Counted from the first letter of the stretch, positions 167-63,232 are shown. The stretch is 64,000 bases of DNA from an uncultured virus (IMG/VR IMGVR_UViG_3300049846_001482) (IMGVR_UViG_3300049846_001482); one strand, 5' to 3'. Numbers and translations: made by a program. The notes: generated by a model from the sequence alone, not told the origin.

Positions 167-538
167 TCATGTGCCTTCTAACCAATCATTGTCAATGCTG
201 GCTCGTGGGAAAGGCATTGGCGGAGCGCCGATGTTTTCTACTCCACCATTCATTCGTTCTTCGGGAGGAATGATGGTGCCAGTATTGCCGTCGATGTTGT
301 TTCCAATGACCACTGTATTGTATGGTGTGATGCCTTGTTCTGGATTCCTTACCACTATTCCACCATTCACGGTAATGACACCATCGATCAAAATGCGTCC
401 ATCTGCATAGAGTCTGATTGCCGACTGTCCATTAAGGACAGCCACATGTTCGTTTTCAGTCCCCTCATCGACCCTAGTTACTTTGGGGTCAAAAGGTTTG
501 ACTCTTGATTTGCCAGATGTGAAATCACTTCGCTTCAT
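167..538 (-). CDS. hypothetical protein with N-terminal MKRSDF tag
   Basis: 123-aa ORF overlapping the upstream ORF by 4 nt. Confidence 0.7.
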   Translation of the reverse strand: MKRSDFTSGKSRVKPFDPKVTRVDEGTENEHVAVLNGQSAIRLYADGRILIDGVITVNGGIVVRNPEQGITPYNTVVIGNNIDGNTGTIIPPEERMNGGVENIGAPPMPFPRASIDNDWLEGT

Positions 539-864
539 TTTTGCGTCTCAACCTTTACGTGTTTCACGATAGGTCTGTTGGTTTTCTTGTTCAACCATTT
601 AGTGCCGACCTGAATCCAACCATCTTCACTGGAATACTCAACCGTCTTACCCTTCGGTCCACCTGTTCGATACCTCATTCTTCCACGACCCAAGATGCGA
701 ACTTTGGTGAATGAGACTTCTCTTTCAATCACACCTACAGGCCATTTTGCAAAAAACTTGTATTTCTTGATCTTCTCGCCACCAGTTTCAAGAGAAACAT
801 AGTAGGGAGCATAGATCACTAGATGATTCTTTGGGAGGTCTCTCAAAAAGTCATACCTATTCAT
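535..864 (-). CDS. hypothetical protein with N-terminal MNRYDF tag
   Basis: 109-aa ORF directly downstream of a sigma70-like promoter; leader only a few nt or absent. Confidence 0.7.
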   Translation of the reverse strand: MNRYDFLRDLPKNHLVIYAPYYVSLETGGEKIKKYKFFAKWPVGVIEREVSFTKVRILGRGRMRYRTGGPKGKTVEYSSEDGWIQVGTKWLNKKTNRPIVKHVKVETQK

Positions 865-870
865 GGTTAA

Positions 871-899
871 ACTATAGGATTTCGGACATGCAAAGTCAA
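871..899 (-). promoter_or_regulatory. sigma70-like promoter
   Basis: TTGACT-17 nt-TATAGT on minus strand. Confidence 0.65.
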
Positions 900-903
900 G
901 TTA

Positions 904-921
904 TTTTATAAGAAAGTATTA
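904..921 (+). promoter_or_regulatory. putative phage-specific promoter/regulatory motif TTTTATARRAAAGTANTA, copy 1
   Basis: TTTTATAAGAAAGTATTA upstream of phoH; matching copies at 26769 (+) and 56733 (-). Confidence 0.5.
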
Positions 922-956
922 CTATAGAGCCTGGATCGACATAAAGGAGACTTTCT

Positions 957-1961
957 ATGTCCAAGACCTCAAGGCGTAAGTTGACCTTTGACACTAAAGA
1001 CGAAATCACTTTGCTCTTCACAGAAAACAAAGAACACCCAATCTTCGCAGAGATACAAAACAAATTCCATGTAGAACTCAAGTTAAACGCCGTAGGTGTC
1101 CTAGTAGCCAAAGGCGACAAAGAGAACACGCTTGAACTAGAGAACCGCTTCAAACGTCTCGTATCCTCCACTAAACCACCTCTTACCCTAGAGCACATGC
1201 AGTCTGTGCTTGATGACACCGCCCTCGCCGCAACACCAGAAGTCCCCGAACCCGAATGGTCCACCATTGAGTTCAAAAACTACCACGGCAAAATCTCACG
1301 CATCTCGCCCAAGAATGAACACCAGAAGGAGTTCATGGAGCAGATCATTGAGAAGAAGGTTGTCTTTGGCAGTGGAGCAAGCGGCACGGGCAAGACTATG
1401 ATAGCTGTAGTTGTCGCTTTGAAGATGCTTGAAATAGGCAAGATCAAGAAGTTGTTCATAACTCGTCCATACTTGCCGTCAGAAAACTTTGGCTTCCTAC
1501 CAGGTGACATCGATGAAAAGATGTTGCCTTTCTTTTTGCCAATCTACAACATCATTGATGCTTTGATAGGTAGAGAGCGCAGGGAGATGTATCAGAAGAC
1601 TAACAAGATTGAGATTCTACCGGCCGCTTTCGCCAGAGGCATCACCATTGGTGGCTTCCAGCCAGAGATGTGCATTGTCGATGAGTCCGAGAACCTGACC
1701 CACAAGCAGATGTTCTTGATGTTGAGCAGAATCGGCTCTCATCCAAACTCTAAGATCATCTTCTGTGGTGACTCCTACCAGACGGACCTTGGACCAAGGG
1801 ATGCAGATTCTCTAAAGAGGGTTGAGATGATATTGAGGGGTTCTCCCTATGTCGGCTTTACAACCTTCACTAGAGAGGATGTGGTTAGGAGCGTTGAGGT
1901 TCAGGATATGGTAGAGAGGTTTGAAAAGTATGAGGCAGAGCAGAAGAACAAGAAGAGCTAA
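957..1961 (+). CDS. phoH: PhoH-family ATPase
   Basis: Walker A GASGTGKT, ITRP..E..GFLPGD, ARG.T, IVDESEN, LSRIG and GD..QTD motifs; AAGGAG RBS. Confidence 0.93.
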   Translation: MSKTSRRKLTFDTKDEITLLFTENKEHPIFAEIQNKFHVELKLNAVGVLVAKGDKENTLELENRFKRLVSSTKPPLTLEHMQSVLDDTALAATPEVPEPEWSTIEFKNYHGKISRISPKNEHQKEFMEQIIEKKVVFGSGASGTGKTMIAVVVALKMLEIGKIKKLFITRPYLPSENFGFLPGDIDEKMLPFFLPIYNIIDALIGRERREMYQKTNKIEILPAAFARGITIGGFQPEMCIVDESENLTHKQMFLMLSRIGSHPNSKIIFCGDSYQTDLGPRDADSLKRVEMILRGSPYVGFTTFTREDVVRSVEVQDMVERFEKYEAEQKNKKS

Positions 1962-2386
1962 ATCCTATCCCAAGCAATGCTATCTCTCAAGAACTTGGAT
2001 AGGGTATAGTTCTGAATGATGTGTTCTCTTTGTAATATGGATGCATCAACAGGCAAAGGATAGAACATTTGCCCACCACGTACCAGCACATCTAACTTTT
2101 GCCACCTGTCAACATTGCCGCTATTGACTGGGCTCAAGTCTTGTCTAACTTCAACACCTACAAAGCGATTGGATTTGATCTTGTATTCTTCTTCTAACAT
2201 GAGTTTCTGTATACTACCCAAGGAATAGGTGGTGTATAGGTCATCTCCAGCACTCTTAGCCACCCCTTCGATATAGATGGGGTGGCTTTCTTTTGCCTTG
2301 GGCATCCATATTTGCCCAGTCTCAACCCATACCCTGCGTGGGTCTTGGACAGACAGATTGGTATCAGCAAACCTATTTCTATTCAT
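1958..2386 (-). CDS. hypothetical protein with N-terminal MNRNRF tag
   Basis: 142-aa ORF in a tightly packed run. Confidence 0.7.
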   Translation of the reverse strand: MNRNRFADTNLSVQDPRRVWVETGQIWMPKAKESHPIYIEGVAKSAGDDLYTTYSLGSIQKLMLEEEYKIKSNRFVGVEVRQDLSPVNSGNVDRWQKLDVLVRGGQMFYPLPVDASILQREHIIQNYTLSKFLRDSIAWDRI

Positions 2387-3230
2387 GAAGGAACTTCCCC
2401 TCGAACTCCATTTTGAACCTATGCTCTGCCCACATCTGATTGTATTCCACCACAGTCCTGTGGTTTACGTCTGGACTTAGAAATGCGGGTACCCTGTAGC
2501 CTATCTGCTTGGACTCTGGTCTTGATGCTATCCAGCGACCCTCATTGAGAGCCTGTATCTTGGTGGTGAACTTATCGCAGTTGGGACAAAGCAATACCTC
2601 GTCGCAGTTGCTTGTAGTCATCGCAAAGAAAGAGAGACAGGATCCGCATCTTACATGGAACTCCCTTTGGTCCGAGTTCTCCCACAGCTTGACTAGAACA
2701 TTTCCTTCTCCAGTAGCCATTGGAGTGCCGAAGTCAAACGACATAGATGGTCTACCATGAGCCATTGTGGTTTGGAAACCCTGGTAACAGTCATTGGTCA
2801 GCACATCACATTCATCCGTGATACAGACATCAACCCTGACGCCCTTGGTCTCACCAAGACTAGAGGTAGCTAGTATTTGTCCACGATTATCAAACACAAG
2901 GAAGTCACGATAGGTCTGAGCAACGTCTAGTCCAAATGTTTGCACCTGACGTGATATTTGCTGAATGTCTAAACGAGCAGCACGAGACGTTGGTGAGGCT
3001 ATGAGAACACTCTTCTTCATTTCGTAGGCTTGGTGCAGGGCAAACCAGCGAGAGAACGTACTTAGTCCAACTTGACGACCCTTGACCACAACGACAGACT
3101 TACCCATTTCAAGCTGGGTCGCCATATCCCTAAAGTAGATCTGTTGTCCGAATGCTTGCTCGGACAACTTGAGATTCCAACGCTTGGAGTATCCCGACTC
3201 TTTAGCCGAGATGTATTTATACCTGTTCAT
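2379..3230 (-). CDS. terminase large subunit-like (GpA-type) ATPase plus Zn-ribbon; C-terminal nuclease absent
   Basis: KGRQVGLST Walker A, CITDECD Walker B, FGTP motif, SDQR..H.RCGSC/CPNC and EGRWIA; only 283 aa. Confidence 0.75.
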   Translation of the reverse strand: MNRYKYISAKESGYSKRWNLKLSEQAFGQQIYFRDMATQLEMGKSVVVVKGRQVGLSTFSRWFALHQAYEMKKSVLIASPTSRAARLDIQQISRQVQTFGLDVAQTYRDFLVFDNRGQILATSSLGETKGVRVDVCITDECDVLTNDCYQGFQTTMAHGRPSMSFDFGTPMATGEGNVLVKLWENSDQREFHVRCGSCLSFFAMTTSNCDEVLLCPNCDKFTTKIQALNEGRWIASRPESKQIGYRVPAFLSPDVNHRTVVEYNQMWAEHRFKMEFEGKFLHE

Positions 3231-3949: not shown

Positions 3950-4300
3950 TCATCCGACTAATGATATCTGCATAGAGCGTCTTCCATATTGATCTAGGTT
4001 CAAAGACACACTCATAATGGAATACATGTGTCCGCCAGCCATTATTCTGAGTCCAACTGGATTATCTCCCATATCTACCACGGCCCCAGCGGCAGCTTGA
4101 GGGATATCTGCATAAATACGTGGGTTGTAGTTACCATATTCGGCTGGAGCTTGTTCGGGCGGTGATTCGTCCTGTATTGGATACTGCTCCTCGTATGTTG
4201 TTGCAGGCATCTTGGAAAACTCTTGCTTCTCGTTTGATATATCCATCTCAGTTTCAGGCTCAACCTCTTTACGGGGAGCTAGGAAATCGCTTCTCTTCAT
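3950..4300 (-). CDS. hypothetical protein with MKRSDFL tag
   Basis: 116-aa ORF, 4-nt overlap. Confidence 0.7.
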   Translation of the reverse strand: MKRSDFLAPRKEVEPETEMDISNEKQEFSKMPATTYEEQYPIQDESPPEQAPAEYGNYNPRIYADIPQAAAGAVVDMGDNPVGLRIMAGGHMYSIMSVSLNLDQYGRRSMQISLVG

Positions 4301-4590
4301 TTGTCACTCGGAAGAATGGGTCTATGCCAAACGATGGCTTCAGCTTCTATGGTTAGCTTATTGCCTGTCTGCTGCACTTGTGTAAAGTAGTAGTTATTGC
4401 CCTGAAATCTTATCCTGTATTTTTCAAGAGGAAGATGTGGCTCAAGCAAAAGACACTGTTCATCTAGTCCAGAAACAATGTCTTCTGACCACGCTGCCTC
4501 TTCCTCTGTTCTACCCACCAGAGATCTTCTGCGTGGAACCTCAATCGGACCACTCTTCTTGCCCTCAGAGATGAACTTGCTTCTCTTCAT
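4297..4590 (-). CDS. hypothetical protein with MKRSKFI tag
   Basis: 97-aa ORF, 4-nt overlap. Confidence 0.7.
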   Translation of the reverse strand: MKRSKFISEGKKSGPIEVPRRRSLVGRTEEEAAWSEDIVSGLDEQCLLLEPHLPLEKYRIRFQGNNYYFTQVQQTGNKLTIEAEAIVWHRPILPSDK

Positions 4591-5102
4591 GAGTTCTTGT
4601 CCACAAAGGCAGCGCAGATAGCCTGCTCCCTAGTCTCGCCCACATAGGACTTGTCAAGGTACAGGATGTACTTTCCCAACTTGACCTTGAACTTGGGTTT
4701 GTATTTGTCCAGCGTCTCCAACAGTTTCTCGGACATCTTTGGATTTCCAAGGAAGTCTGGTATCTGCTTCTCCTTGCCACCGCTGACCATCGACCACTCA
4801 CCTTTATCGTCTTGCACGTATCTCCAACCCAAAGCCTCACAAGCTTGCTCATTCAGATCCAAGTCGTAAGGATAGGTCTTCTTCTCGTAGTTATTGATGA
4901 TGTCTTCACGGGTGAAGAAGAAGTAGTCGCCATGCAGAAGGTCTTTGACATAGTACCTTGGCTCACCTTCGTAGGGTGAAGTGATGATCTCTATATTGAG
5001 GGGATTGTTGATCTTAGTAACGTTGACACGCCGTATCCATTTCTGGCCTACGGAGATATCAACGCCCATTGCACCCCAGATGTGCTTATACCTTGAGTTC
5101 AT
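4587..5102 (-). CDS. hypothetical protein
   Basis: 171-aa ORF, packed. Confidence 0.7.
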   Translation of the reverse strand: MNSRYKHIWGAMGVDISVGQKWIRRVNVTKINNPLNIEIITSPYEGEPRYYVKDLLHGDYFFFTREDIINNYEKKTYPYDLDLNEQACEALGWRYVQDDKGEWSMVSGGKEKQIPDFLGNPKMSEKLLETLDKYKPKFKVKLGKYILYLDKSYVGETREQAICAAFVDKNS

Positions 5103-5224
5103 CCTTCTTCATATCCTCAAATATCTTTTCGATGACAGCCTTAGATTTAACAAGGTCGTCAACAACCTTTCTGTCTATCTCGCTTATCTGGTTCTGTAGG
5201 AAGGAAGTTCCTGCTGCCCTGACG

Positions 5225-5485
5225 CTAGAACTTTCGCTTCCATTTGGGGAGGTGGTTTCCATGGATCTCATACCTCGCTAGTTGTGAGTTGAACTTGATC
5301 TCATACCGATGCTCTTCCATGAATGGCTTGCCTTCCAGTATATCTACCACGAACTTGTTGAGCCTCAGTTCCTTTACCTTGACTATTAGCCCAGCATCAC
5401 TCTGCAACTTGTCCTCTGGAACAATCTCCCCTATCTGCAGATTGGGCATCTCCATGCTACTGATGGCAAACTCTACTCTTTTCAT
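5225..5485 (-). CDS. hypothetical protein with MKRVEF tag
   Basis: 86-aa ORF, 4-nt overlap. Confidence 0.65.
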   Translation of the reverse strand: MKRVEFAISSMEMPNLQIGEIVPEDKLQSDAGLIVKVKELRLNKFVVDILEGKPFMEEHRYEIKFNSQLARYEIHGNHLPKWKRKF

Positions 5486-6129
5486 TCGAATGGGAAAGAA
5501 GCGAGTTCTTTGGCAGGCATCAACATTTCATCCAGAACCCTTGTTGCAGAACTAGTGGGGGGAACAACGTGATTGTCTTGACCAGCCACAAAGGCATATC
5601 CAGCAGCAGGGGTAGTCTCAGCATATCCGTGGAAATGCTGTTGATTGATGGCCATGTCAAGTCCCATGACATAGGTTCCGCTTACATTAGCCATTGGCAT
5701 AGGAGCCGCTGGACCTGTAGCCTGTGTATTGGCAGTCGTGTAGTTGTTGTAAATCCACGGATTGCCTACGGTGTTTGGAGCTACAAAAGGTTGAGGGTTG
5801 AGGGGTATTGGAGCAGGTCCGATTGGCACATATTGACTGGCTGGAGCCCACATGGTTCTATACTGGAAACCCTTTGTGATCTCTTCGGCTGTCATCTCAA
5901 AAGCCAACAGAACACCAGATATACTTCTGACTCCCCCAACCTCATGAAATGAACATGTCCACTTCTTTAGGATGGGATTAAAGCCCTGAATGAGAATGGC
6001 AAAGTCAATCTCGCCTCGACCATCTTGGAAGTCCATCTTGGTGAGAGATTCCCATATCTGGTTTGAAACGATGGGTGGATCAAGTGTCTTGATTGGCTCC
6101 TTTCCACTCATAAAGTCTTGTCTATTCAT
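5482..6129 (-). CDS. hypothetical protein with MNRQDF tag; likely paralog of 8245..8706
   Basis: Start moved to the MNRQDF ATG; FNP...KW...E[ML]TxEEI motif shared. Confidence 0.7.
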   Translation of the reverse strand: MNRQDFMSGKEPIKTLDPPIVSNQIWESLTKMDFQDGRGEIDFAILIQGFNPILKKWTCSFHEVGGVRSISGVLLAFEMTAEEITKGFQYRTMWAPASQYVPIGPAPIPLNPQPFVAPNTVGNPWIYNNYTTANTQATGPAAPMPMANVSGTYVMGLDMAINQQHFHGYAETTPAAGYAFVAGQDNHVVPPTSSATRVLDEMLMPAKELASFPFE

Positions 6130-6578: not shown

Positions 6579-6782
6579 TCCACTTCTCTTTGATGAATTC
6601 GGCCACGAAAGCAAGACCCAACACAAACAACCAGCCCAGCGTTAGGACTACGCCCAACGCCAGCAGTATGGCCAAAAAGCCCAAGAACAATATCCATCCC
6701 ATAAGGTTACTCATCCTCCAACGCCCATTTCATTCTTCTTTCCCAGTCTCGTTGTTGTATTTTGTTCTCGTCTTGCTCTAGA

Positions 6783-7337
6783 TTACTTTCGACCTCTTTT
6801 AGAACCTCTTCCACCTCTACGTCCTTCTGCTTCTTTGATTTCTTCTTCGATGCTGACTTTTGATCCGCCTTCGACCTCAGCCAAGATTGTCTTCGCATAT
6901 TCGCCTTCGAATACTATCTCGTATTCGTCTCCTAGATCAAACTCTTTGGACATTGCATCAGCAGCAGCCTGGAGTTTTGCCGAATATCTCTCAGCCTCAT
7001 CCTCTTCAGCCTGCTTAACCCTTGCATCTATCTCAGGAGCGTCAGCCCTACCCTTTCTGCCATAGCCCTTTGCATAGAGTCCGCTACCAGCCTTGTCGCC
7101 ACCCACAGCACGCAAGGCAGCATGACGCTCCATAGCATCTTGCTTTATGATCTCGGCAGCAGCCTCGGATATCTCTTCGCTGGGGTCGAATTCGTCACCA
7201 GGCTTGATCTCATTATCGCTCCACTCCTCAGGTTCCTCGGCGTCTGGGAACTTCTTCTTCCATCGGAGTATTTGTAGGTTCAGAACATCATTCAGATTCC
7301 TGATTACAATGATCTTCTTCTTAGTCTTTTTTGTCAT
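6783..7337 (-). CDS. hypothetical charged protein
   Basis: 184-aa ORF, acidic core with basic ends. Confidence 0.7.
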   Translation of the reverse strand: MTKKTKKKIIVIRNLNDVLNLQILRWKKKFPDAEEPEEWSDNEIKPGDEFDPSEEISEAAAEIIKQDAMERHAALRAVGGDKAGSGLYAKGYGRKGRADAPEIDARVKQAEEDEAERYSAKLQAAADAMSKEFDLGDEYEIVFEGEYAKTILAEVEGGSKVSIEEEIKEAEGRRGGRGSKRGRK

Positions 7338-9261: not shown

Positions 9262-9489
9262 CTACTCCTCTTCTACAAGTGACTTCAACAAGTTGTCCAC
9301 ACAATGCCTGTCGGACTTCTTGAGGATGATATCACAAATAGTCTTGGTTGTCTCTTTGGTAGCTATCTTCTCACCTCTATTATAGCCAATTTTGTATGCT
9401 ATAAAAAGTGTGGATAGAAAAATAATGGCTACAGCATAGAGTCGCCATTCGTAGATGTCTTTTTTCTTCCAGTCTCTATCTTTAAACAT
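9262..9489 (-). CDS. small membrane protein
   Basis: Single hydrophobic segment. Confidence 0.6.
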   Translation of the reverse strand: MFKDRDWKKKDIYEWRLYAVAIIFLSTLFIAYKIGYNRGEKIATKETTKTICDIILKKSDRHCVDNLLKSLVEEE

Positions 9490-9991
9490 TGGCTACGTCT
9501 CCATTGGGGTCTATGTAGATGATGTTCTTACCCTTCTTTTTGGCATAAGTGACACAATTGCTAGTCCCACCAGGTGAACCATCCCAGACAGCCACAACAA
9601 CGTCGGACCTATCCACCATCCACTTATTCCTGTCCATCATCTTCTTGGGGTCGTAGGGGTCTGGTGAAACGTCTATGACTTCGTTTGCTTCATCACACAT
9701 CTTTTTGAACCTAACCTTTGAAGCCTCTGGCCATATCTTGTCTTGAGATGGGAATGGTTTGGCTATTATCAGTCTTACATGTGGCTGTGCCTTCTTGAAT
9801 TCCAAGACTATCTCTGCAGCCCAAGTGTCAATTCCCAAAGCGCCACCAGAGATGAACTCCTGATAGCCCTGCTCAACCAACTGCCTGATCTGCTTGGCTA
9901 ATGCTGATTTGACATAACGAGCCTTAGGATTGCCCTCGTCATAGCCACCCAACTTGTCGGGTCTATGTCCAGTAAAGCAAACGGATATCAT
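9482..9991 (-). CDS. SLOG family protein (YspA/DUF1273-like)
   Basis: CFTGHRP, FISGGALGID, RNKWMVD, AVWDG..GGT motifs. Confidence 0.9.
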   Translation of the reverse strand: MISVCFTGHRPDKLGGYDEGNPKARYVKSALAKQIRQLVEQGYQEFISGGALGIDTWAAEIVLEFKKAQPHVRLIIAKPFPSQDKIWPEASKVRFKKMCDEANEVIDVSPDPYDPKKMMDRNKWMVDRSDVVVAVWDGSPGGTSNCVTYAKKKGKNIIYIDPNGDVANV

Positions 9992-15352: not shown

Positions 15353-16333
15353 CTACTCCATGTCTATGGCAAACCTTAGGAGTCTAAAGTACTCCAAGTC
15401 AGGTTCCAAGTCAAGTATTTTTCCATTCGGGCCGATAGGCTCAAAAAGCATACAATGGCACAGCCCTGAGTCACCACAGGACTTGCAGAAAGTGACACTA
15501 TGGACGTAGCCACCTAGCAAAAAGTCTATTCGCTTCATTGGCTGGTAGGGGCTCTATCTCAAAAATTGTTGGAGGAGGCATGGCTCCAACAAACTCAAAT
15601 GCCATTCCATGCTCATCAATGTGACCCTTACAGTTGCCGCCGTTCTCTCTTCCCACTTCCCAGCAAATATGACAATGAGGAATAGTGGGCTCTTGGGGCA
15701 ACTTGCGAGGCTCACTGATAAGCCACTGCCTTCTATTCATCTTCCCTGATCCTTCTTACTTCCATGAACCTACGCATGATGTTGCCATAGTCCATGTTCT
15801 GTCGGATGGGATTGGCCATGTTCCTTGCCAATTCAGTCATTGCAGAATCAGTTTGAGTTGCATGGGTAAGCAACTCTTCTCTTTGGGTATCACTGATAGA
15901 TTTCTTTTCAGCATTCGACTTGGCTGCATACTCCATCAAAGCCTGTATGCGTCTCTCTTTCTCAAGCCTAGCATCTTCCTTTGCCTTACACGGAGCGCAC
16001 AGACCATTGATGTCGCCAGCCAGCTCCCCACATAGCCCGCAATAATTTGGTTCCTCTCTACGACCTTCTAGCCATTTATTGCGGTTCAACTGCCTGCCTC
16101 ATACGTTCATGAGATCTATCCAAGACGTTGTATCTTGTCCGATTGACCTCATTCCATCTAACTGTTGGATTGGCTACCATCTCAAAGGGGGCGACCTCCA
16201 CTCTTTGCCCAGCAATTTCTGGACCGTGGAAGTGAGAAGCGTTGAGAGGGAGATAGTCTCCGCATTCTGGGCAGATCTTGTATCTTTCTTTCCAATCACT
16301 GACCTTGCCAGAAAGCCATTCCCACCGGCGCAT
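15353..16333 (-). CDS. four tandem small tagged ORFs: 15353..15538 MKRIDF, 15498..15740 MNRRQW, 15733..16089 MNRNKW, 16076..16333 MRRWEW; each with a CxxC motif
   Basis: ORF track; shared N-termini followed by CxxC (CKSC, CHIC, CGLC, CPEC). Confidence 0.65.
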
Positions 16334-23623: not shown

Positions 23624-23974
23624 CTACCACTCCAGATAAACGCCCTGCACCCACTTCCAGATCTTGTCCGTTCTGACGCTGTAGCCAAGAGCCTTAAAGT
23701 AGGAGGAGTTCTTAACGATGAAGTCAGCATCACTACCATCGTAGTATCTTTTATGTCCTCCATGACTTTTAGCTGCGTATTGAACTCCACCCAAGATGCT
23801 GTCAACCCTCTTTTTGAAGGTCTCCTCAGCATGTACTTTTGCGTTCTCTCTGGCTTGGTTGGCATTGAAGTGCTTGTTGTCTGCCAAGAGCACGTCTTTG
23901 TCCAGAACAATACCGTCCTGAACAATCTCTTTGCTCTCAAGAGGTTTCCCATCGATGAAAGCAGCCCTCTTCAT
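23624..23974 (-). CDS. hypothetical protein with MKRAAF tag
   Basis: 116 aa, overlaps the mnmA stop by 4 nt. Confidence 0.65.
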   Translation of the reverse strand: MKRAAFIDGKPLESKEIVQDGIVLDKDVLLADNKHFNANQARENAKVHAEETFKKRVDSILGGVQYAAKSHGGHKRYYDGSDADFIVKNSSYFKALGYSVRTDKIWKWVQGVYLEW

Positions 23975-29600: not shown

Positions 29601-29601
29601 G

Positions 29602-48472: not shown

Positions 48473-48546
48473 GGTTTCTCCTTTTGTTCTCGACTTTCTA
48501 ACCAGGAACCCAAACTAGTTGGGTTCAAGGTAAGACAGTGGAGACC

Positions 48547-49125: not shown

Positions 49126-49146
49126 GTCTTACTCCTTACGTTGGGG

Positions 49147-50283: not shown

Positions 50284-50304
50284 ATCTTCCTCCGAGTTGA
50301 CACC

Positions 50305-50333
50305 ACTCTAACATAGTAAGTATTACTTGTCAA
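50305..50333 (-). promoter_or_regulatory. sigma70-like promoter
   Basis: TTGACA-17 nt-TAGAGT. Confidence 0.6.
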
Positions 50334-50342
50334 TAGTTGGTG

Positions 50343-50912: not shown

Positions 50913-50913
50913 A

Positions 50914-51465: not shown

Positions 51466-51471
51466 TTTCTC

Positions 51472-51672
51472 CTATAGCTTGATGCCAGCATCTTTAGCGG
51501 CATAGTAAAGGTTTGCATGTCCGCATGGGCAAGTGTCCATGCCGTCATCATCACAGCCATCTTCATGAGAGTGGGCTATTTTGGTCCTCGAAAGGACTTC
51601 CCCAAGCTTCTTGATGGCAGGATGTTTTGCCAACTGCTCAGGGGTTAGGGACTTGATCTCGGCGTCAGTCAT
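51472..51672 (-). CDS. small hypothetical protein
   Basis: ORF from MTDAE overlapping the pncB end. Confidence 0.5.
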   Translation of the reverse strand: MTDAEIKSLTPEQLAKHPAIKKLGEVLSRTKIAHSHEDGCDDDGMDTCPCGHANLYYAAKDAGIKL

Positions 51673-52849: not shown

Positions 52850-52852
52850 GAC

Positions 52853-53320
52853 TTATCCTCGATTCTTAAAGAGATAGCGCCAAACAAGTTGAGCGCCAAA
52901 GACCGTCAGAAGCCAAGCCCGTCCAAAGAACGACTTCTTCTTGAAGTGAAGCTCATAGATGAGGTCGTAGCCCATCCGAGCAAACCACTCCTTATTCCGG
53001 TCCTCTTCGTTCATTGCATGGATGACGATTGTTTCTTCGGGGATAACACCGTGGGGTTCGAATTCAATCCCCCATGCAGTCGAAACCAACATTCGATTGA
53101 GGCACCTCTCATCGTAGACGCTTACTGCCTCAAAAGGATGGTCCGAACCACAACCGCAGTCCTCTTCGTGAGCCAACTTCACCTTCATCTTGTGCTGCTT
53201 CAAGAAGGGTGTAGTCAAGAAACCTTGTTCATCCAGTCTTAACTGCTTCTTCTCAAACCACTTCTCACATGGCTTGGAGCTGAACTTGACGATGGTTCCC
53301 TTGGGGACGATGATCTTCAC
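52853..53320 (-). CDS. hypothetical protein
   Basis: 155 aa, AGGAG RBS. Confidence 0.6.
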   Translation of the reverse strand: MKIIVPKGTIVKFSSKPCEKWFEKKQLRLDEQGFLTTPFLKQHKMKVKLAHEEDCGCGSDHPFEAVSVYDERCLNRMLVSTAWGIEFEPHGVIPEETIVIHAMNEEDRNKEWFARMGYDLIYELHFKKKSFFGRAWLLTVFGAQLVWRYLFKNRG

Positions 53321-53328
53321 GACTTCTC

Positions 53329-53601
53329 CTAAAGTTTGCTCATCAGGGCAGCAATGGCCATCCTGTCAATGCCGCTCAGTTCTACGAGTTTAGGAGAACC
53401 AACCTCTCTGATCATGTTGAGAACTTGCCTCGTCACCCATTTCTCACAAGCAGCCTGCGCCAGTTCGATGGTCTCGTAGTCATTATTGTCGGACCACGCT
53501 AGATTCTTCTCCACCCAGTGCCATTTCTTCCTACCCTGACTCTCAACCTCAAAGGTAAAGAGTCCGCAGATGAGTTGGCGTTTCTTCCACTTGAGAGCCA
53601 T
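53329..53601 (-). CDS. hypothetical protein
   Basis: 90 aa, GGAGG RBS. Confidence 0.6.
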   Translation of the reverse strand: MALKWKKRQLICGLFTFEVESQGRKKWHWVEKNLAWSDNNDYETIELAQAACEKWVTRQVLNMIREVGSPKLVELSGIDRMAIAALMSKL

Positions 53602-53817
53602 GACTAATCCTCCTCCTTCTTCATCCGTTGACGGACGATGCGCCGAGCAGTGCGATGCTCTTTCTTGACACCCTCGGAGCGGGCCTTTTTGGAACGCCGA
53701 TTGCGGTAGGACTCAGCAGGATACTTGTCATGCCCAGGGCAGCAAGACCCCAAGAACTTGAGTTGCTTGATTTCCCTCTTCATCGTAGCTCCAAAGTATC
53801 ACTTTCCTAGTTGCTTG

Positions 53818-54174
53818 TCAAGCCCTGTGTTCTCTGGTATTTGCCACTTCGGCCAGAGCGTCTATGGCAATGTGAGGTCCGAGAATCCTCTTGCCTTCGT
53901 AGAGAAAGGTCTCTCGGACCTCGTGTTCCATTGCCTGTAGGACTGCCAAGAAGGCTGTCTTGACCACTTCGCCCTTGACCATGTAAGGGGAGATGTAGAA
54001 CTTCCTCCCCTTTTGCAGCTCCATTTCTTGGGTGTAGATGTCCCTGTCCATGAAGCTGACCTGAAGCAGCCAGCCCCTATCAGAGATGGGTTCAAGAAGG
54101 AACTTCCAGTCCTTGAACTCGATCTTGCTGATGATCTCAGCGACTTGCTCTTTGGTCATGGCTGGCTGGTTCAT
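53818..54174 (-). CDS. conserved phage-type hypothetical protein
   Basis: Q.GRK.YIS.Y....EVVKTAF.A...A.EHEVRE.F.Y...R..GPH pattern; GAGG RBS. Confidence 0.7.
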   Translation of the reverse strand: MNQPAMTKEQVAEIISKIEFKDWKFLLEPISDRGWLLQVSFMDRDIYTQEMELQKGRKFYISPYMVKGEVVKTAFLAVLQAMEHEVRETFLYEGKRILGPHIAIDALAEVANTREHRA

Positions 54175-54178
54175 GGCA

Positions 54179-54829
54179 TCACCTCACCAAGATGATGTCG
54201 TCAGCATTGGCGACGATCTTGATGCCCACAGCTTCCATGTCCTTGATGGCAGCAGCCGTGGTCTCGGCGGTGATGCCTCGGCAAGCCGCCAGATTGATGA
54301 TGACATCAAAGCCAGCCTTGCGGAGTTGCAGAGCCGTGGTCTTCACGCAGTAGTCGGTGGCCAGCCCGCCCACGATGACCGTGTTGACGTACTTGCCCTT
54401 CAAGAACTCGATGACGCCGGTGCTGCGCTTGTCAGCGAGGTCGTGGTAGCAAGCCCCATAGGGGTGGCTGTCGGCTTCGATGCCCTTGTAGGCCACGAAG
54501 TCGTAGTCCAGCGGAGCAGGCAGGCCGGGCAGGAAGGCGAAGCCCTGCGTTCCCACTTCGCAGTGACGGTTCCAACGGATGTCCACGTTGGCGGTCCCCA
54601 CAGGGCTGAACTGGGGATGCGCCTCGTCAGCGATCCAGTCACCCTTGGGGTTGTGGGCGTCCTTGCTGGCCACACGAAGATGGGCCTTGGTGGCTTGCTT
54701 GTTCAGTTGGAAGACGATGTTGTGTCCGTCTTCCACGGGCAGCTCGTTGGGGCAGAGAGGAGTGAAACCCTGCTGCGGGTCCACATCGAAGCTTGCGGTG
54801 TCCTTGCTCACTACATATACCTTTTCCAT
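54179..54829 (-). CDS. pncA: nicotinamidase (isochorismatase family)
   Basis: DVD.Q.GF, D.H, W..HC..GT.G, YKG, GGLATDYCV catalytic motifs. Confidence 0.93.
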   Translation of the reverse strand: MEKVYVVSKDTASFDVDPQQGFTPLCPNELPVEDGHNIVFQLNKQATKAHLRVASKDAHNPKGDWIADEAHPQFSPVGTANVDIRWNRHCEVGTQGFAFLPGLPAPLDYDFVAYKGIEADSHPYGACYHDLADKRSTGVIEFLKGKYVNTVIVGGLATDYCVKTTALQLRKAGFDVIINLAACRGITAETTAAAIKDMEAVGIKIVANADDIILVR

Positions 54830-54831
54830 GA

Positions 54832-55812
54832 CTATTCTCCTTTGTTATTCTGCGCCCTCAGTAGGTGCGCTTTGAGTAGGGTGTAGAGAACCCTGTGTTC
54901 TGGAACGAAGATCTCTTCGTCCAGTCTTTCAATGTCGAACCATTTCAGTTCGGCAATATCGTCGGCGGCTTTCGGCTCACCAACGAAGTCGTAGATGGCA
55001 TAGAGCGAAGTCATGATGCCGTCTTGTTCGTTTCGATAGCGCCAGTCGTCGATCTTGGCGCTTCCGCAGTAGATGGGTTCTCCCAGACCACGCAGACCCG
55101 TCTCTTCTGCAGCCTCACGCTGAACAGCCACTTCCTTTGAGGCATCCTGATTGATGTCCACGAAGCCACCAATGAAACGCCACTTGCCATCGGGGTCGTT
55201 CTCCTTACGGGCAAGCAAAAGGCGATATGTGGGCTTGTCGATGATGGCTGCATCAACGGTAGTGTAGCTGGTGGGGAAGCGGTCAAAGCAGCAGGCAATC
55301 CAAGCCTCACGGACCTCTTCCGAGTCAAAGGCATCTCCGCTCTCATCGCTGAAAAGAGCCTCGATCATCTTGCGGATATCCGACCCCGACACGGTGCGAC
55401 GGGCTTCCAGCGAGACGGTGGGAAAAACACCCTTGTAATAGGGGATGAACCCATCACGGCTTCCATAGAGCGTGACAGGGCCGTTGGGGTAGGCTTTGCG
55501 GATTTTCTCGTCAAGGGTCTTCGACCAGAGGACATGGTGGTTCACGTCCTTGATCTCAAGGATCTTCATGATGGGGTCGCCAGGAACGCCTTTGAAGGCA
55601 TTCATGATCATCTTCTTACGGGCTTTGAACGGGAGGGGGTTGTAGCGGCTTGCTTTGATGGGCGAAGTGCCTAAAAAAACCAAAACCTTTTCATGACGCT
55701 CAAAAACGTCATTGAAAAGGTCAATGTGGCCTTCGGTAAGTTTTGGGACTTGGAATCGCCCGACGATGACGCCAATGCCAGGCTGCTTGAGTTGCTTGAA
55801 TGCGTTGCTCAT
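54832..55812 (-). CDS. bifunctional NMN/NaMN adenylyltransferase - Nudix (ADP-ribose pyrophosphatase-like), NadM-Nudix type
   Basis: GVIVGRFQ...TEGH, NPL.F..R..M, SGS.IR; Nudix box GGFVD....E.A..RE..EETG; A.DD. Confidence 0.92.
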   Translation of the reverse strand: MSNAFKQLKQPGIGVIVGRFQVPKLTEGHIDLFNDVFERHEKVLVFLGTSPIKASRYNPLPFKARKKMIMNAFKGVPGDPIMKILEIKDVNHHVLWSKTLDEKIRKAYPNGPVTLYGSRDGFIPYYKGVFPTVSLEARRTVSGSDIRKMIEALFSDESGDAFDSEEVREAWIACCFDRFPTSYTTVDAAIIDKPTYRLLLARKENDPDGKWRFIGGFVDINQDASKEVAVQREAAEETGLRGLGEPIYCGSAKIDDWRYRNEQDGIMTSLYAIYDFVGEPKAADDIAELKWFDIERLDEEIFVPEHRVLYTLLKAHLLRAQNNKGE

Positions 55813-56750: not shown

Positions 56751-56751
56751 T

Positions 56752-58695: not shown

Positions 58696-58772
58696 TGGTG
58701 GTGACGGAGGGAATCGAACCCCCGACCTGCGGTTTAGGAAACCGTCGCTCTATCCAACTGAGCTACGCCACC
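58696..58772 (-). tRNA. tRNA-Arg(CCU)
   Basis: Cloverleaf, anticodon loop UUCCUAA, encoded CCA. Confidence 0.93.
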
Positions 58773-58782
58773 GTAAGTATTA

Positions 58783-59130
58783 CTAGTCCATCTTACCTTT
58801 ATATCCCAGCGTGTCAAGCATTTCTTTTTGCTCTTTTCTCTCGTTGAGGATATTGGCAATGACCTTGATGGTGACTGAGACTGGACCCTGTTTGTCATGG
58901 GGAGCCATCAAACCACAGTTCTCCCATGTCAAATAGTCTTTCACGTCAACATGGAGCATCTGCGCCATGGCTTTGGGGGTCAATCCAAACCGCTTGCGAT
59001 GAGCCTTCAATTCAGCTCCAGTCATGACCTCTCTGGGTGTCTCATCAGGAGGAAAGATGCGAGTCCACACATTGTCGATGAACCAGATCCTTGTATGCCA
59101 ATCCAACCACTGGAGAGCCTTGGTCAACAT
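58783..59130 (-). CDS. XRE-type HTH protein
   Basis: [16 protein letters not shown]...MA..L.V....Y..WE motif. Confidence 0.75.
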
Positions 59131-59131
59131 C

Positions 59132-59323
59132 TCACACCTTCACTGAGGTTAGGGGAACTTTGTCAAGATCATGCTCTAGTTCATCGGCAGCGGCAATGCA
59201 GTCGTTGGCAACACAAGAGCCATCGCAGTCCGCTTCATCATAGTGAATCATCCCGTCTGGATAATTGTCTCTGATGTATTCTGCAGCTACTTTTAGCATG
59301 TAGATGGCTCTATGTCTGTCCAC
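59132..59323 (-). CDS. hypothetical protein
   Basis: 63 aa; YDEA.CDG.C...DC pattern. Confidence 0.55.
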   Translation of the reverse strand: MDRHRAIYMLKVAAEYIRDNYPDGMIHYDEADCDGSCVANDCIAAADELEHDLDKVPLTSVKV

Positions 59324-59336
59324 ACTGCCTCTAAAT

Positions 59337-59413
59337 TGGTGTCACCGGAGGGATTCGAACCCCCTACCTCCTAGTTCGTAGCCAGGCGCTCTATCCAAAT
59401 GAGCTACGGTGAC
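59337..59413 (-). tRNA. tRNA-Arg(ACG)
   Basis: Cloverleaf, loop CUACGAA, encoded CCA. Confidence 0.95.
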
Positions 59414-59685
59414 GTTAAGTTTTCCTCTGAAACCAACTCTCTTATGAATCGCTCAGTCATCCAAACGAGCTTGTTTTGTCTCTTTGATTGCCTTCTCTCT
59501 TGCTGAGTCCATTCAACCCACGACTTCCTGTAGAGTGGACTGGAGGGCGCTGAGCTATAGCCAATCTTTGGCTTATACATGTAGACAGCATAGACATCAC
59601 TTACCTTCTCGTCCCGCTTCACAATCATGATGCGGTGGCCGTCTTTTTGCCTCAGCCTCTTGCCTAAGATAGAGTCGGGTATCAT
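59404..59685 (-). CDS. hypothetical protein
   Basis: 93-aa ORF between tRNAs. Confidence 0.5.
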   Translation of the reverse strand: MIPDSILGKRLRQKDGHRIMIVKRDEKVSDVYAVYMYKPKIGYSSAPSSPLYRKSWVEWTQQERRQSKRQNKLVWMTERFIRELVSEENLTSP

Positions 59686-59698
59686 GCTAACCTATAAG

Positions 59699-59775
59699 TG
59701 GCGTTGCCAGAAGGACTCGAACCTTCGACCTGCAGGATCGGAACCTGCTGCTCTGATCCACTGAGCTATGGCAAC
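59699..59775 (-). tRNA. tRNA-Arg(CCG)
   Basis: Cloverleaf, loop UUCCGAU, encoded CCA. Confidence 0.93.
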
Positions 59776-59776
59776 A

Positions 59777-60250
59777 TTACGAGTTCTGGTTGGGGTTCTT
59801 GAAGGTCAAGATCTTCTTATGCTTCAAGACAGCCACACAGTCGTCAGACACGAAAAACTCGCCGTTTGGAAAGATCTCCTTGTATTGCAGGAAATCTGGA
59901 ATGGACGACATCTTCTCGTAGAGTTGCGCCATGGTCATGTCTGGTCTGTTGTAGCGGCTGCGGAACCTCAGAAGAGCATGGGAGGTAATCGCAAACCCAA
60001 ACTTGACCAGATTCTCCTGATAAGCCCTCTCCCTGGCCACCTTGACCGCATCTCGCTCAGGGTCAACGTAGGGCTGGTGCTTATTGTTCTGGTGCCAGTT
60101 GAAGATGAACTGTTTGATCATCCCAATGTCTTTTTTCAACTTGATTATCAAAGACCTGTCGTGTCTCTTCTTGGCTTCACGGCACTTGGCGATTGTTTCT
60201 TTCAGTTCTCGGTGTAGATCTGGCAGTTGCAAGTGTCGATAGGGATTCAT
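59777..60250 (-). CDS. hypothetical protein (C-terminal ITSHALLRF..R, RelE-like pattern)
   Basis: 157 aa, GGAG RBS; TTGACA-17-CATAAT promoter at 60278-60306. Confidence 0.6.
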   Translation of the reverse strand: MNPYRHLQLPDLHRELKETIAKCREAKKRHDRSLIIKLKKDIGMIKQFIFNWHQNNKHQPYVDPERDAVKVARERAYQENLVKFGFAITSHALLRFRSRYNRPDMTMAQLYEKMSSIPDFLQYKEIFPNGEFFVSDDCVAVLKHKKILTFKNPNQNS

Positions 60251-60308
60251 CGTGATCTCCAGAGAAAGAATCAGCGAATTATGCCAGTGTAGGTGTTACT
60301 TGTCAAGT

Positions 60309-60500
60309 CTAGTCTGCCTTGTTGTAGGTGAACTCAAGGACTTTCTTATCCTTGCCGTTCCTCTTGGTGTCCTTTATCAAGACCTTTTCTACCGTCAGGA
60401 CATTCCCCAGATTTGAGGTAAGTTGGAGACGCCGTTTCTTAGACTTCACGAACTTGGCTATGTCGGCCGCCCAAGCCTCTGGAAAACGAAGGTCACTCAT
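60309..60500 (-). CDS. hypothetical protein
   Basis: 63 aa, AAGGAG RBS. Confidence 0.55.
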   Translation of the reverse strand: MSDLRFPEAWAADIAKFVKSKKRRLQLTSNLGNVLTVEKVLIKDTKRNGKDKKVLEFTYNKAD

Positions 60501-60516
60501 GACTTGATCTCCTTAG

Positions 60517-60592
60517 TGGTGGAGCTTAGGGGAATCGAACCCCTGACCTTTTCAGTGCGAGTGAAACGCTCTCCCGACTGAGCTAAAGCCCC
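60517..60592 (-). tRNA. tRNA-Ala(CGC)
   Basis: GGGGCUU/AAGCUCC acceptor with G3:U70, loop CUCGCAC, CCA. Confidence 0.95.
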
Positions 60593-60597
60593 AAAAC

Positions 60598-60673
60598 TGG
60601 TGGACAGAGAGGGAGTTGAACCCCCGACACCCTCCTCTTCAGGGAGGTGCTCTACCAACTGAGCTATCTGTCC
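60598..60673 (-). tRNA. tRNA-Phe(GAA)
   Basis: Cloverleaf, loop CUGAAGA, CCA. Confidence 0.93.
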
Positions 60674-60677
60674 AAAA

Positions 60678-60753
60678 TGGTGGAACGGGTGGGGATCGAA
60701 CCCACGACCCAGCGATTAAGAGTCGCTTGCTCTACCAACTGAGCTACCGTTCC
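60678..60753 (-). tRNA. tRNA-Lys(CUU)
   Basis: Cloverleaf, loop CUCUUAA, CCA. Confidence 0.95.
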
Positions 60754-60758
60754 GTATC

Positions 60759-60867
60759 CTCTGGCGGAGGGTCATTCGTGTTGATCGCAGAAGGCTCTAA
60801 TCTCGCCGCTACAGCAGCATAACATACGCCCTCCGTGCCCCAGTATGTCCAGGCGACCTCGCCAGAG
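60759..60867 (-). ncRNA. candidate ~110-nt structured RNA within the tRNA cluster
   Basis: CUCUGGCG/CGCCAGAG terminal stem continued by GGUC/GACC; no credible ORF. Confidence 0.45.
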
Positions 60868-60878
60868 TTTTTATCCTC

Positions 60879-61109
60879 TCAAAGTTTAATAGGTTCTATC
60901 TTGGCTAGCTTTTCAGCCTTTTTTCTCTCTATGCCAAGAAAGTATATGTTGGTTTCTGCCACCATTGCTTTCAAGACTCTGACTCCTAAGTTATGGGGGT
61001 CAGTTGATCCAACTCTGACAAGGCTATTGTTGTCCTCATCAACAGCATGGGTATATCCGAGCCATTCCTTTATTACGAGAGGTTGTTTTTTGCTAGTCTT
61101 GCCTGCCAT
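60879..61109 (-). CDS. hypothetical protein
   Basis: ORF from MAGKTS with GAGG RBS. Confidence 0.55.
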   Translation of the reverse strand: MAGKTSKKQPLVIKEWLGYTHAVDEDNNSLVRVGSTDPHNLGVRVLKAMVAETNIYFLGIERKKAEKLAKIEPIKL

Positions 61110-61123
61110 ACAAACCTCTAAAG

Positions 61124-61199
61124 TGGTGCCACGGGAGGGAATCGAACCCCCGACACTTCGCTCTTCAGGCGAATGCTCTACCAACTGAGCTACCGTGGC
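61124..61199 (-). tRNA. tRNA-Phe(GAA), second copy
   Basis: Cloverleaf, loop CUGAAGA, CCA. Confidence 0.95.
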
Positions 61200-61200
61200 G

Positions 61201-61428
61201 TTATTTCACTAGCTTTACCAAGCCCTGATCTAGAAGTTCTAGGGCTATCTCTTTCGTGAAGTGGAAGGTGGCTCCAGCCTTAGCCATTTTCCGTCCACTC
61301 TGTCCAAGATACTGCGACATGGCTTCTGCGTCTGGATAAAGTATCTTTACCTTGACGCTATCCTTGACCCTGCATCTCTTGGTGAGGAAGTTTGGGTCAA
61401 CCATGAAGTTCAAATCGAGCTTTTTCAC
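61201..61428 (-). CDS. hypothetical protein
   Basis: GTG start with AGGAG RBS. Confidence 0.55.
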   Translation of the reverse strand: MKKLDLNFMVDPNFLTKRCRVKDSVKVKILYPDAEAMSQYLGQSGRKMAKAGATFHFTKEIALELLDQGLVKLVK

Positions 61429-61453
61429 TATTGCTCCTACACTTGATTGTCGG

Positions 61454-61579
61454 TGGTGAGCCGGGTGGGGATCGAACCCACGACCCACGGATTAAAACTT
61501 TTCAAGGACTGAGGAATCGAACCCCATCATCTTACCCTTTGTCCCTGGTCCGTTGCTCTACCAACTGAGCTACCGGCTC
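61454..61579 (-). tRNA. tRNA-Lys(UUU) interrupted by a 50-nt insertion (61498..61547) between C32 and U33
   Basis: Removing 61498..61547 yields a canonical 76-nt tRNA (ACGGA-CUUUUAA-UCCGU anticodon arm, CCA). Confidence 0.88.
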
Positions 61580-61649
61580 ATCACCAAAAATCAAGCTTCA
61601 AAGATACGGTTGCATTTTATACCTTTAAGCGGTATTTTTTGCAACCCCT

Positions 61650-61692
61650 AAAAACACGAAACCCACTCCATCTTACAGAGTGGGTAGTTTCT
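61650..61692 (-). terminator. intrinsic terminator-like hairpin
   Basis: ACCCACUC/GAGUGGGU stem followed by UUCGUGUUUUU. Confidence 0.6.
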
Positions 61693-62064
61693 TGTCAAAC
61701 GAAATCGCCGCCACTCTTATGAGACGTTAGTAAACCTCTTGGCGAATTTTCGGAATGACTGGTACATTGGATCCTCTTTGTTAGTTTGGTAGAACTTTTG
61801 CTGGCTCTACGCCTCGGTGGACGAACTCGCCAAGGGACGATACCCTAGATGACTGTTTTGGCATTGGCCGCTGGGTGGGACTCGAACCCACGATCACCCC
61901 TAGACGGGGCTGCTTTAGCCACTGAGCTACCTGCGTCCTAGCCTCTGTCACCGCAAACTTGTCGGCGGTCCCATGCCGTTGGGATTACTCTGGCTACCCT
62001 GCTCAAACCGGGGAAAGTCCTCTTGGATTTCTCCAAGCCCCTAATCCAGACCGCTATCTTCTAT
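61650..62064 (-). ncRNA. candidate ~400-nt structured ncRNA containing a degenerate tRNA-like domain (~61865..61936)
   Basis: ORF-free, bounded by a promoter and a terminator; several hairpins plus an 11-bp long-range stem. Confidence 0.6.
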
Positions 62065-62070
62065 AGACGT

Positions 62071-62098
62071 ATTGTAGCAGAAATTAGTTCCTTGTCAA
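62071..62098 (-). promoter_or_regulatory. sigma70-like promoter
   Basis: TTGACA-16 nt (ending TGC)-TACAAT; contains the upstream TGA stop. Confidence 0.7.
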
Positions 62099-63232
62099 GA
62101 ACTTTTTTCGTTTAATTTTAATTTCTCGAACATTGCCTTTGCTACTTCCTTTGAATAAGCATGCCTTTTTCTGATTATGTCCATCGCCTCTCTCTCGCTC
62201 AATGGATTACCGTTGCTATCGTACATTTTCTGGGTATCAAGTCCGTATTTCTTCAACTCGGCCTCATCATAGTCAAAGGCTTGGACCTTTTTGCCATTGA
62301 GCCATTGATCTCTCTTCAAAACACATCTCCTCTTTCTACCTCTTCTGGCATCGGCATTTCCTCAAACCCTTCTGGACAATGCTCTCCGCTCCAGATAAAA
62401 ACCGTTCCTACGGGTATTGGGTTTTTAGGCTCTATCTGAGTCACCTTTCTGATCAACCTATAGCCTTTTTCTTGCCAATCTAAAAGCGTTCTAATATCTC
62501 TCGGATAGAAGTTAGCTATCTTTCCATGCTTCTCAAAATGAGCATGCCAATCTATCCTGAATCTTTTGTTTTTGAGCCAGTCTATTCTATTCATGACTTA
62601 GGCTTCAGTTTGGGTGTCTTTTCGATGGGCTCTTGGGCATCTTCCCAAGACACACTCCACCCTTCCCCGACAACCTTTCCACTCTCTACTACTTTGACTT
62701 CGCCCTCAGCTATCTGCTTGAGGACTTCCATGTAGCGTGGATCTTCAGGCGTGATCTCTTCCCAGTACTTTTTAGGCACTGTGGCTGGGTCATATTGCCT
62801 ACCTTCGATCCAGTCTTTTCTTTTCATAGTGGAGGAAACCTATCGAAATGTTCAGTCATGACTCTCCAGCCATTCGGAACCATGCCACCTGACCAGAAGG
62901 CCACATATCCTGGCGGGATGAGGTCGTCATCCGTGGATGTTCTTTGAATAAGAACAAATCCATATTGATTTATCTGTTGGGTGACATTGTGAGCATGAAC
63001 AGAGACCCAATCAACAATTTCCCTTGGGGCTCCATTCAACCAATCACTTCTTTTCATGGAACTCTGGGAGAAACTGTTGGATATTTATCTGTACTGTCTC
63101 GGTCCAAACAATGGGATTGCCGTCTTTGTCAAACCCAGTTGGCTTCATGTCGCCACTGAACTTTGTCTCTATGTTGATCTCTGGAACTCTCTGAGTCCAG
63201 TGATCTCCCCGCACCCATTGTGACCTATTCAT
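62095..63232 (-). CDS. five tandem small tagged ORFs: 62095..62319 MKRDQW, 62316..62594 MNRIDW, 62591..62827 MKRKDW, 62824..63057 MKRSDW, 63044..63232 MNRSQW
   Basis: ORF track; overlapping starts and stops; shared N-termini. Confidence 0.7.

Follow-up and report, generated by a model that had tools for sequence, protein, structure and literature searches.

The T-even bacteriophages have internal proteins that one published review describes as a highly diverse set in which only the capsid-targeting sequence (CTS) is conserved; according to the same review, foreign proteins fused to the CTS can be brought into the phage head (PMC3012670). Here we analyzed a 64,000-nucleotide stretch of DNA from an uncultured virus (IMGVR_UViG_3300049846_001482), hereafter the window. 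It covers 64 kb, or about a third, of the 195,487-bp contig of a large phage, and its minus strand bears almost all of its genes. About a quarter of these genes begin with an N-terminal tag of the form M[KNQR]Rxx[FWY]. We find that this motif is real and confined to N-termini, and that it is mostly a peptide-level signal with an added nucleotide layer. We consider it fairly probable that the tag is a clade-specific, portable N-terminal short linear motif that is kept by protein-level selection and likely serves as a docking or address label. Searches of the open-access literature, at the level of listings and abstracts, yielded no description of such a tag.

An initial annotation of the window had listed 25 tagged open reading frames (ORFs), and all 25 coordinates are starts of minus-strand ORFs with the N-termini given (ATG start codons in 23 cases and TTG in two, at 16089 and 62319; ORFs are named here by their start coordinates). 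Two tagged starts beyond that list, at 170 (MNRYKF) and 6898 (MRRQSW), bring the total set to 27; the second is doubtful because its ORF overlaps a gene of 184 amino acids (aa) at 6783-7337 by 116 nucleotides (nt). For three of the genes, protein database gene calls (P0001, P0004, and P0157) independently place the start at the tag.

A six-frame count of the literal pattern M[KNQR]R..[FWY] gave 27 matches on the minus strand and one on the plus strand. Among the minus-strand matches, 25 head ORFs of at least 55 aa, one is a mini-ORF starting at 63410, and one (55694) is a seven-codon, out-of-frame chance match. The DNA pattern ATGAANAGRNNNNNNTKB occurs 18 times in the window, on the minus strand only, compared with 0.8 ± 0.8 occurrences (maximum 4) in 100 dinucleotide-preserving shuffles. 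When ORFs of at least 60 aa were counted, 23 of 226 in the window were tagged versus 15 of 5,466 in 160 distinct phage and metagenome control loci (1,676,930 bases; Fisher odds ratio 41, p=1.8e-23), with never more than one tagged ORF per control locus. Beyond residue 8 of proteins, a stricter form of the motif appears once in 17,642 residues, where 1.6 occurrences would be expected. The initial annotation had suggested counting the motif at N-termini against internal positions and other phages; on that count, the enrichment lies at the N-termini of the window and not internally.

The GenBank phage collection contains no close relative of the window phage, and exact-match searches gave no occurrence of a 40-mer in IMG/VR or of a 47-mer in the JGI metagenomes. 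A 712-aa protein of unknown function (41403-43541, minus strand; phrog_33734, E=3e-96) has counterparts, 34-43% identical, on IMG/VR phage contigs that are 64-461 kb long and lack the tag. In these distant phages the tag is absent both locally and over whole records; the DNA pattern matches 20 times, both strands summed, in the complete records of five distant relatives (1.29 Mb). Because these relatives are untagged, the tag is ruled out as a general property of the phage group.

The codon at position 6 tracks amino-acid class exactly, which argues for selection on the peptide: it is TTY in 15 of the 27 tagged genes, TGG in 10, and TAY in two, and never TTR, TGY, or TCN. Arg3 is encoded by AGA (16 genes), AGG (6), and CGN (5), so that the codons behind the tag vary at both positions, as had been claimed. 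Residues 5 and 7-10 played no part in defining the tagged set, and each is nevertheless biased: residue 5 is D, E, K, or Q in 22 of 27 proteins, residue 7 is L, I, V, M, or F in 22, residue 8 is S in 10, residue 9 is G in 11, and residue 10 is K or R in 13 (p from 2e-5 to 1e-9, with no such bias in untagged genes). These biases show that the motif spans about ten residues, with the consensus M-[K/N]-R-x-[D/E/K/Q]-[F/W/Y]-[L/I/V]-S-G-[K/R]. The tagged ORFs, together with the mini-ORF, are as follows.

3..170, minus strand: tagged ORF MNRYKF, open at the window edge, new here
167..538, minus strand: tagged ORF MKRSDF, 123 aa, ATGA overlap
535..864, minus strand: tagged ORF MNRYDF, 109 aa
1958..2386, minus strand: tagged ORF MNRNRF, 142 aa, after the split terminase-like ATPase, with an 8-nt overlap ATGAATAG
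2379..3230, minus strand: tagged ORF MNRYKY, 283 aa, gpA-type terminase ATPase domain only (Pfam, PHROGs)
3950..4300, minus strand: tagged ORF MKRSDF, 116 aa
4297..4590, minus strand: tagged ORF MKRSKF, 97 aa
5225..5485, minus strand: tagged ORF MKRVEF, 86 aa
5482..6129, minus strand: tagged ORF MNRQDF, 215 aa, paralogue of ORF 8706
6707..6898, minus strand: doubtful tagged ORF MRRQSW, 63 aa
8245..8706, minus strand: tagged ORF MNRAEF, 153 aa
14058..14261, minus strand: tagged ORF MNRASW, 67 aa, its start overlapping the TAG stop of a Thg1-like gene
15353..15538, minus strand: tagged ORF MKRIDF, 61 aa, CxxC
15498..15740, minus strand: tagged ORF MNRRQW, 80 aa
15733..16089, minus strand: tagged ORF NRNKW with a TTG start, 118 aa, CxxC
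16076..16333, minus strand: tagged ORF MRRWEW, 85 aa, CxxC
23624..23974, minus strand: tagged ORF MKRAAF, 116 aa
31223..31702, minus strand: tagged ORF MNRYEY, 159 aa
33238..33627, minus strand: tagged ORF MNRRHF, 129 aa, widespread phage family
37236..37592, minus strand: tagged ORF MQRADF, 118 aa
39596..40063, minus strand: tagged ORF MKRTKF, 155 aa, orthologue P0158
55875..56231, minus strand: tagged ORF MKRTKF, 118 aa, Cys-rich
62095..62319, minus strand: tagged ORF KRDQW with a TTG start, 74 aa, first of a five-gene W-type array
62316..62594, minus strand: tagged ORF MNRIDW, 92 aa
62591..62827, minus strand: tagged ORF MKRKDW, 78 aa
62824..63057, minus strand: tagged ORF MKRSDW, 77 aa
63044..63232, minus strand: tagged ORF MNRSQW, 62 aa
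63360..63410, minus strand: 16-codon mini-ORF MRRYDWLQGKPK, with the full extended W-type tag

Tandem arrays of small ORFs hold tagged genes at 62095-63232, 15353-16333, 3950-6129, and 3-864. The mini-ORF adjoins the five-gene W-type array, the next 137 nt are gene-free, and it is probably what is left of a tagged gene that has decayed.

The portability of the tag is best seen in ORF 33627, whose family has 5,195 homologues at E<=1e-3. We scored the tag in the 150 best matches, and 141 of them lack it, as would be expected of the homologues without the extension that the initial annotation had proposed to look for. In typical family matches, the protein's own residues 2-6 align to residues 29-32 of the query, and the clade-specific N-terminal extension comprises the tag plus some 18 residues after it. 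The five closest relatives keep the tag and the segment that follows it (P0005 at 76% identity; P0006, P0007, P0009, and P0018 at 41-52%), and F and Y exchange at residue 6 among them and ORF 33627. Of the four other pattern matches among the 150, P0016 has a doubtful start, and in P0119, P0122, and P0133 the match is the body's own aromatic pair. When P0005, P0009, and P0018 were used as queries against IMG/VR, metagenomes, GTDB genomes, and INPHARED, they returned untagged family members or nothing. An AlphaFold2 model of ORF 33627 has a mean predicted local distance difference test score (pLDDT) of 89, with 58 for residues 1-10 and 87-95 for residues 11-30, which pack on the body; in the model the tag is thus the exposed tip. 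A structure search with this model matched nothing solved, and only uncharacterised viral proteins. In ORF 40063, the orthologue P0158 (50% identity) keeps R3, F6, L7, T8, and K9, with L at residue 2. By these alignments, the tag is conserved in orthologues at 41-76% identity and absent from homologues outside the clade.

The bodies behind the tag are diverse. In an all-against-all BLAST comparison of the 27 bodies with the first 10 residues removed (E<=0.01), only two pairs are related, 6129/8706 (E=8e-6) and 62594/63057 (E=2e-3), so that the claim of mostly unrelated bodies holds at the BLAST level. Their lengths range from 55 to 283 aa, and there are Cys-rich, acidic, and helical types among them. 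Small size and hydrophilicity mark the tagged proteins, with a median length of 109 aa and a grand average of hydropathy (GRAVY) of -0.64, compared with 172 aa and -0.41 for untagged proteins. Pfam recognizes one of the 24 tagged proteins scanned, the terminase-like ATPase, versus 27 of 69 untagged ones, in keeping with the earlier observation that no recognizable enzyme carries the tag. PHROGs assigns a family to four of the 27; even at a loose threshold it returned nothing for ORFs 2386, 864, and 538, and ORF 6129 had no homologue in a search of 5.8 billion proteins. Matches of ORFs 16089 and 16333 to phrog_2522 ("major head protein") are weak and short and probably reflect coiled-coil stretches, and we discarded them as a capsid link.

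The terminase-like carrier requires separate treatment. ORF 2379-3230 matches the gpA-type terminase ATPase domain (PF05876, 1.8e-8; phrog_675, 5.8e-21), and its 283-aa product ends at the motif that closes the ATPase part, with the nuclease domain not on the same chain. Full-length gpA-type relatives have open frames throughout, of 606-720 codons. The split follows the ATPase domain in each of the three known copies of the gene, the orthologues P0002 and P0003 ending at the same place, and P0002 (51% identity) has the same start, with 16 of the first 18 residues identical. We found no relative closer than 24-34% identity in IMG/VR with the protein alone or as an alignment. The protein does bear the tag, as had been noted; however, over residues 4-18 it aligns with an N-terminal motif that full-length gpA-type terminases conserve, and this confounds it as an independent example. 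ORF 2386 starts with its tag exactly at the split, and its 142 aa may be a degenerate or shortened nuclease part. By eye, it has Ala where full-length relatives have the Asp of a G-V-D motif. ORF 2386 had no family match, and its single-sequence AlphaFold2 model was poor (pLDDT 35). The split gene is probably not a working one-chain terminase.

Because the register is fixed and the genes are coupled, the main alternative to a label is a role in translation, in which the opening 6-10 codons, or the nascent chain made from them, would optimize re-initiation and early elongation at coupled starts, and genes that were born or remodelled in this lineage would have converged on such an N-terminus. 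We regard this as unlikely. The motif keeps a fixed distance from the start codon, the sequence NTGA is found at 24 of the 27 tagged starts, and 18 of the 27 are joined to the upstream stop by an overlap of 4, 8, or 14 nt; yet 35 of 72 untagged genes also start with NTGA, and for three tagged genes there is no close neighbor upstream. Third positions of codons 2-3 are A/T-rich (fraction 0.65 in tagged versus 0.49 in untagged genes), and Asn2 is AAT in 11 of 13 cases against a 37% baseline, which makes ATGAATAG, a sequence with stops in both other frames that supplies the upstream stop in four cases. In the terminase-like gene, moreover, the half downstream of the split gained its tag exactly there. 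The AGR codons at Arg3, on the other hand, reflect a general start-proximal habit of the window phage: Arg in codons 2-10 of untagged genes is AGR in 24 of 30 cases, which rules out a tag-specific gating by AGR codons. The overlap at ATGA, raised earlier as a null model, explains some of the K/N preference at residue 2 but not R3, the aromatic residue 6, or residues 5 and 7-10. Neither does any known initiation or coupling signal predict an aromatic codon 6 drawn from three codon families and followed by an aliphatic residue 7, and P0158 has Leu at residue 2 yet keeps R3, F6, and L7.

Other readings place the signal in the protein and give it another origin or use. The tagged genes could be one or a few old, hugely diverged paralogous families whose N-terminus is the best-kept part. 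The body similarity in two pairs, the tandem arrays, and the grouping of W-type tags in two arrays with F-type tags elsewhere would fit such common descent, but it accords poorly with the lack of similarity between all other pairs at the BLAST threshold, with the range of body lengths and types, with the tag on a terminase-type ATPase, and with the body of ORF 33627, which comes from a family of 5,195 members otherwise without the tag; keeping the tag alone would, besides, still need strong selection. We give this reading little weight, and about as little to an N-degron, by which small accessory proteins would be destroyed on schedule through an AAA+ protease adaptor, or through cleavage between residues 5 and 6 that leaves F, W, or Y at the new N-terminus for ClpS/ClpAP. 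ClpS-type recognition needs an aromatic residue, followed by an aliphatic one and a flexible stretch, and the tag offers the first two, at a position fixed to the N-terminus, with low pLDDT over residues 1-10 in one good model (ORF 33627) and on small, hydrophilic carriers. With the aromatic residue at position 6, however, a cut after residue 5 is required, and no processing protease or site for it is known; Leu, the commonest of the four strong ClpS residues, is found at position 6 in none of the 27, Pfam detects no Clp or Lon component in the window, and the acidic residue right before the aromatic one is left unexplained. Hardly credible at all is twin-arginine translocation (Tat), either as a true export signal or as a mimic of its n-region. 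The register fits the Tat consensus S/T-R-R-x-F-L-K from residue 3 onward (R3, polar 5, F6, L7), and one true Tat-like signal in control locus L031 fits the same pattern. Twin Arg in the Tat register (R3-R4) nevertheless occurs in two of 27 proteins and R2-R3 in two more, leaving a single Arg in 23; a 12-residue stretch with a mean Kyte-Doolittle value above 1.6 within residues 6-45 occurs in none; K, E, and P abound in residues 8-30; and Trp, atypical of Tat signals, is at residue 6 in 10 of 27. Tat export is thus effectively refuted by the twin-Arg count and the missing hydrophobic core, and the initial description of a resemblance to the Tat n-region short of membership was apt.

We therefore return to the tag as an address or docking label. 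The earlier proposal of a portable peptide label gains from the amino-acid class held at codon 6, the untagged homologues outside the clade, and the tagged orthologues at 41-76% identity, and draws less from the terminase-like protein than had been thought. One shared phage or host factor would read the free N-terminus in fixed register, through Arg3, the aromatic residue 6, and the aliphatic residue 7, and would direct no fewer than 26 accessory proteins, most of them small and otherwise unrelated to one another, to a common place or fate; the tag would have been acquired by, or retained on, many such proteins of the clade. Both the single reader and the destination are inferred. Among destinations we rank first, by analogy with the T4 CTS, loading into the procapsid for co-injection, because the exposed tip, the diverse small bodies, and the variable tandem arrays match the description of the T4 internal proteins; it is nonetheless a tentative choice that we would not call probable. 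A hub of replication, transcription, or the host as docking site seems a little less likely again, and timed proteolysis is a distinctly poor candidate. A broader version, plausible although we would not bet on it, is that a clade of large uncultured phages (about 200-360 kb) uses an undescribed proteome-sorting code, in which a dedicated receptor reads the free N-terminus M-[K/N]-R-x-x-aromatic-aliphatic and takes dozens of unrelated, fast-evolving small proteins to one destination, which could for example be the procapsid interior, with a co-injected anti-defence cocktail, or a compartment built by the phage.

Several observations weigh against a label of this kind. No reader protein was found, and no candidate for one stood out in the window. 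The fixation of the register to the start codon and the overlap of two-thirds of the tagged starts (18 of 27) with an upstream stop, like the confounded terminase example, have been described above. W-type and F-type tags cluster by locus, so that part of the spread of the tag is local duplication. Charge and isoelectric point follow no common trend among the tagged proteins, and the census of carriers covers 64 kb of the contig. The tag is missing from two DNA methylases, from PhoH, and from every tRNA-repair and nicotinamide adenine dinucleotide (NAD) enzyme, which argues against a general label for a DNA compartment; a label of the nuclear-import type is less likely for the same reason, the DNA methylases being untagged. 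Finally, the prohead protease of the T4-type system cleaves by the rule [L/I]-x-E, and this motif follows the tag within the first 16 residues in only two of the 27 proteins, so that we reject a processed CTS of the T4 type in the strict sense.

If one factor does read the tag, a handle of ten residues would sort about a quarter of the phage's proteins. The sorted set could then be found in metagenomic phages by sequence alone, the reader would be easier to identify, and foreign proteins could be loaded or steered in such phages. Address peptides in the style of T4 would be wider spread and more varied than the single textbook case. The tagged set itself already supplies candidates for proteins of host takeover or anti-defence.

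The modules of the window that Pfam recognizes are tRNA repair, NAD salvage, and two DNA methylases with PhoH. The tRNA repair and maintenance set is unusually full (34199-38930, 28506-29642, 21045-21704, 14254-15027, 13475-13870, and 23971-25044): it comprises a Pnkp-type kinase/phosphatase/ligase (34199-36763) and Hen1 (37689-38930), along with two RNA ligases, a Thg1-like guanylyltransferase, a PTH2 peptidyl-tRNA hydrolase, and an MnmA-like thiouridylase. Nine tRNA genes lie on the minus strand at 58696-61936: Arg(CCT), Arg(ACG), Arg(CCG), Arg(TCT), two Phe(GAA), Lys(CTT), Ala(CGC), and Lys(TTT). The last of these (~61454-61579) has a 50-nt intron in its anticodon loop and was detected by Rfam and, in intron mode only, by ARAGORN. 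Eight of the nine tRNAs are specific for Lys, Arg, or Phe, which are also the three most conserved residues of the tag; this may be coincidence, or may be linked to host anticodon nucleases given the tRNA-repair genes nearby. The NAD salvage and synthesis module (46742-55812) encodes NAPRTase, a glutamine-dependent NAD synthase (NadE), a NUDIX-domain protein (326 aa), and an isochorismatase-family protein that is a possible nicotinamidase. Elsewhere, an ATP-grasp protein of the R2K clade, a predicted protein/peptide ligase family (31983-32786), a PGA_cap (CapA-like) protein (10860-11969), and a YpsA SLOG protein (9482-9991) are possible protein- or nucleotide-modifying accessories.

Compared with described systems, the tag shares with the Tat n-region an N-terminal basic residue, an Arg, an aromatic residue three positions on, and Leu, often with Lys or Ser. 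It differs from Tat signals in its single Arg, the absence of a hydrophobic core, its frequent Trp, and carriers that are small, hydrophilic, and of cytoplasmic type. The encapsulation peptides of bacterial microcompartments and the cargo-loading peptides of encapsulins are likewise short, terminal, and portable, and each is read by one shell or scaffold protein. They are, however, longer amphipathic helices or C-terminal, and unlike in those systems, no shell gene was seen in the window. The T4 CTS is a further parallel, although its sequence is probably different. Unlike the T4 system, the window has no scaffold, portal, or prohead protease gene, and the tag has far more carriers, 27 in 64 kb. 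Like the T4 CTS, it is a short peptide at the extreme N-terminus, set in register with Met1 and carried by diverse small proteins in variable arrays.

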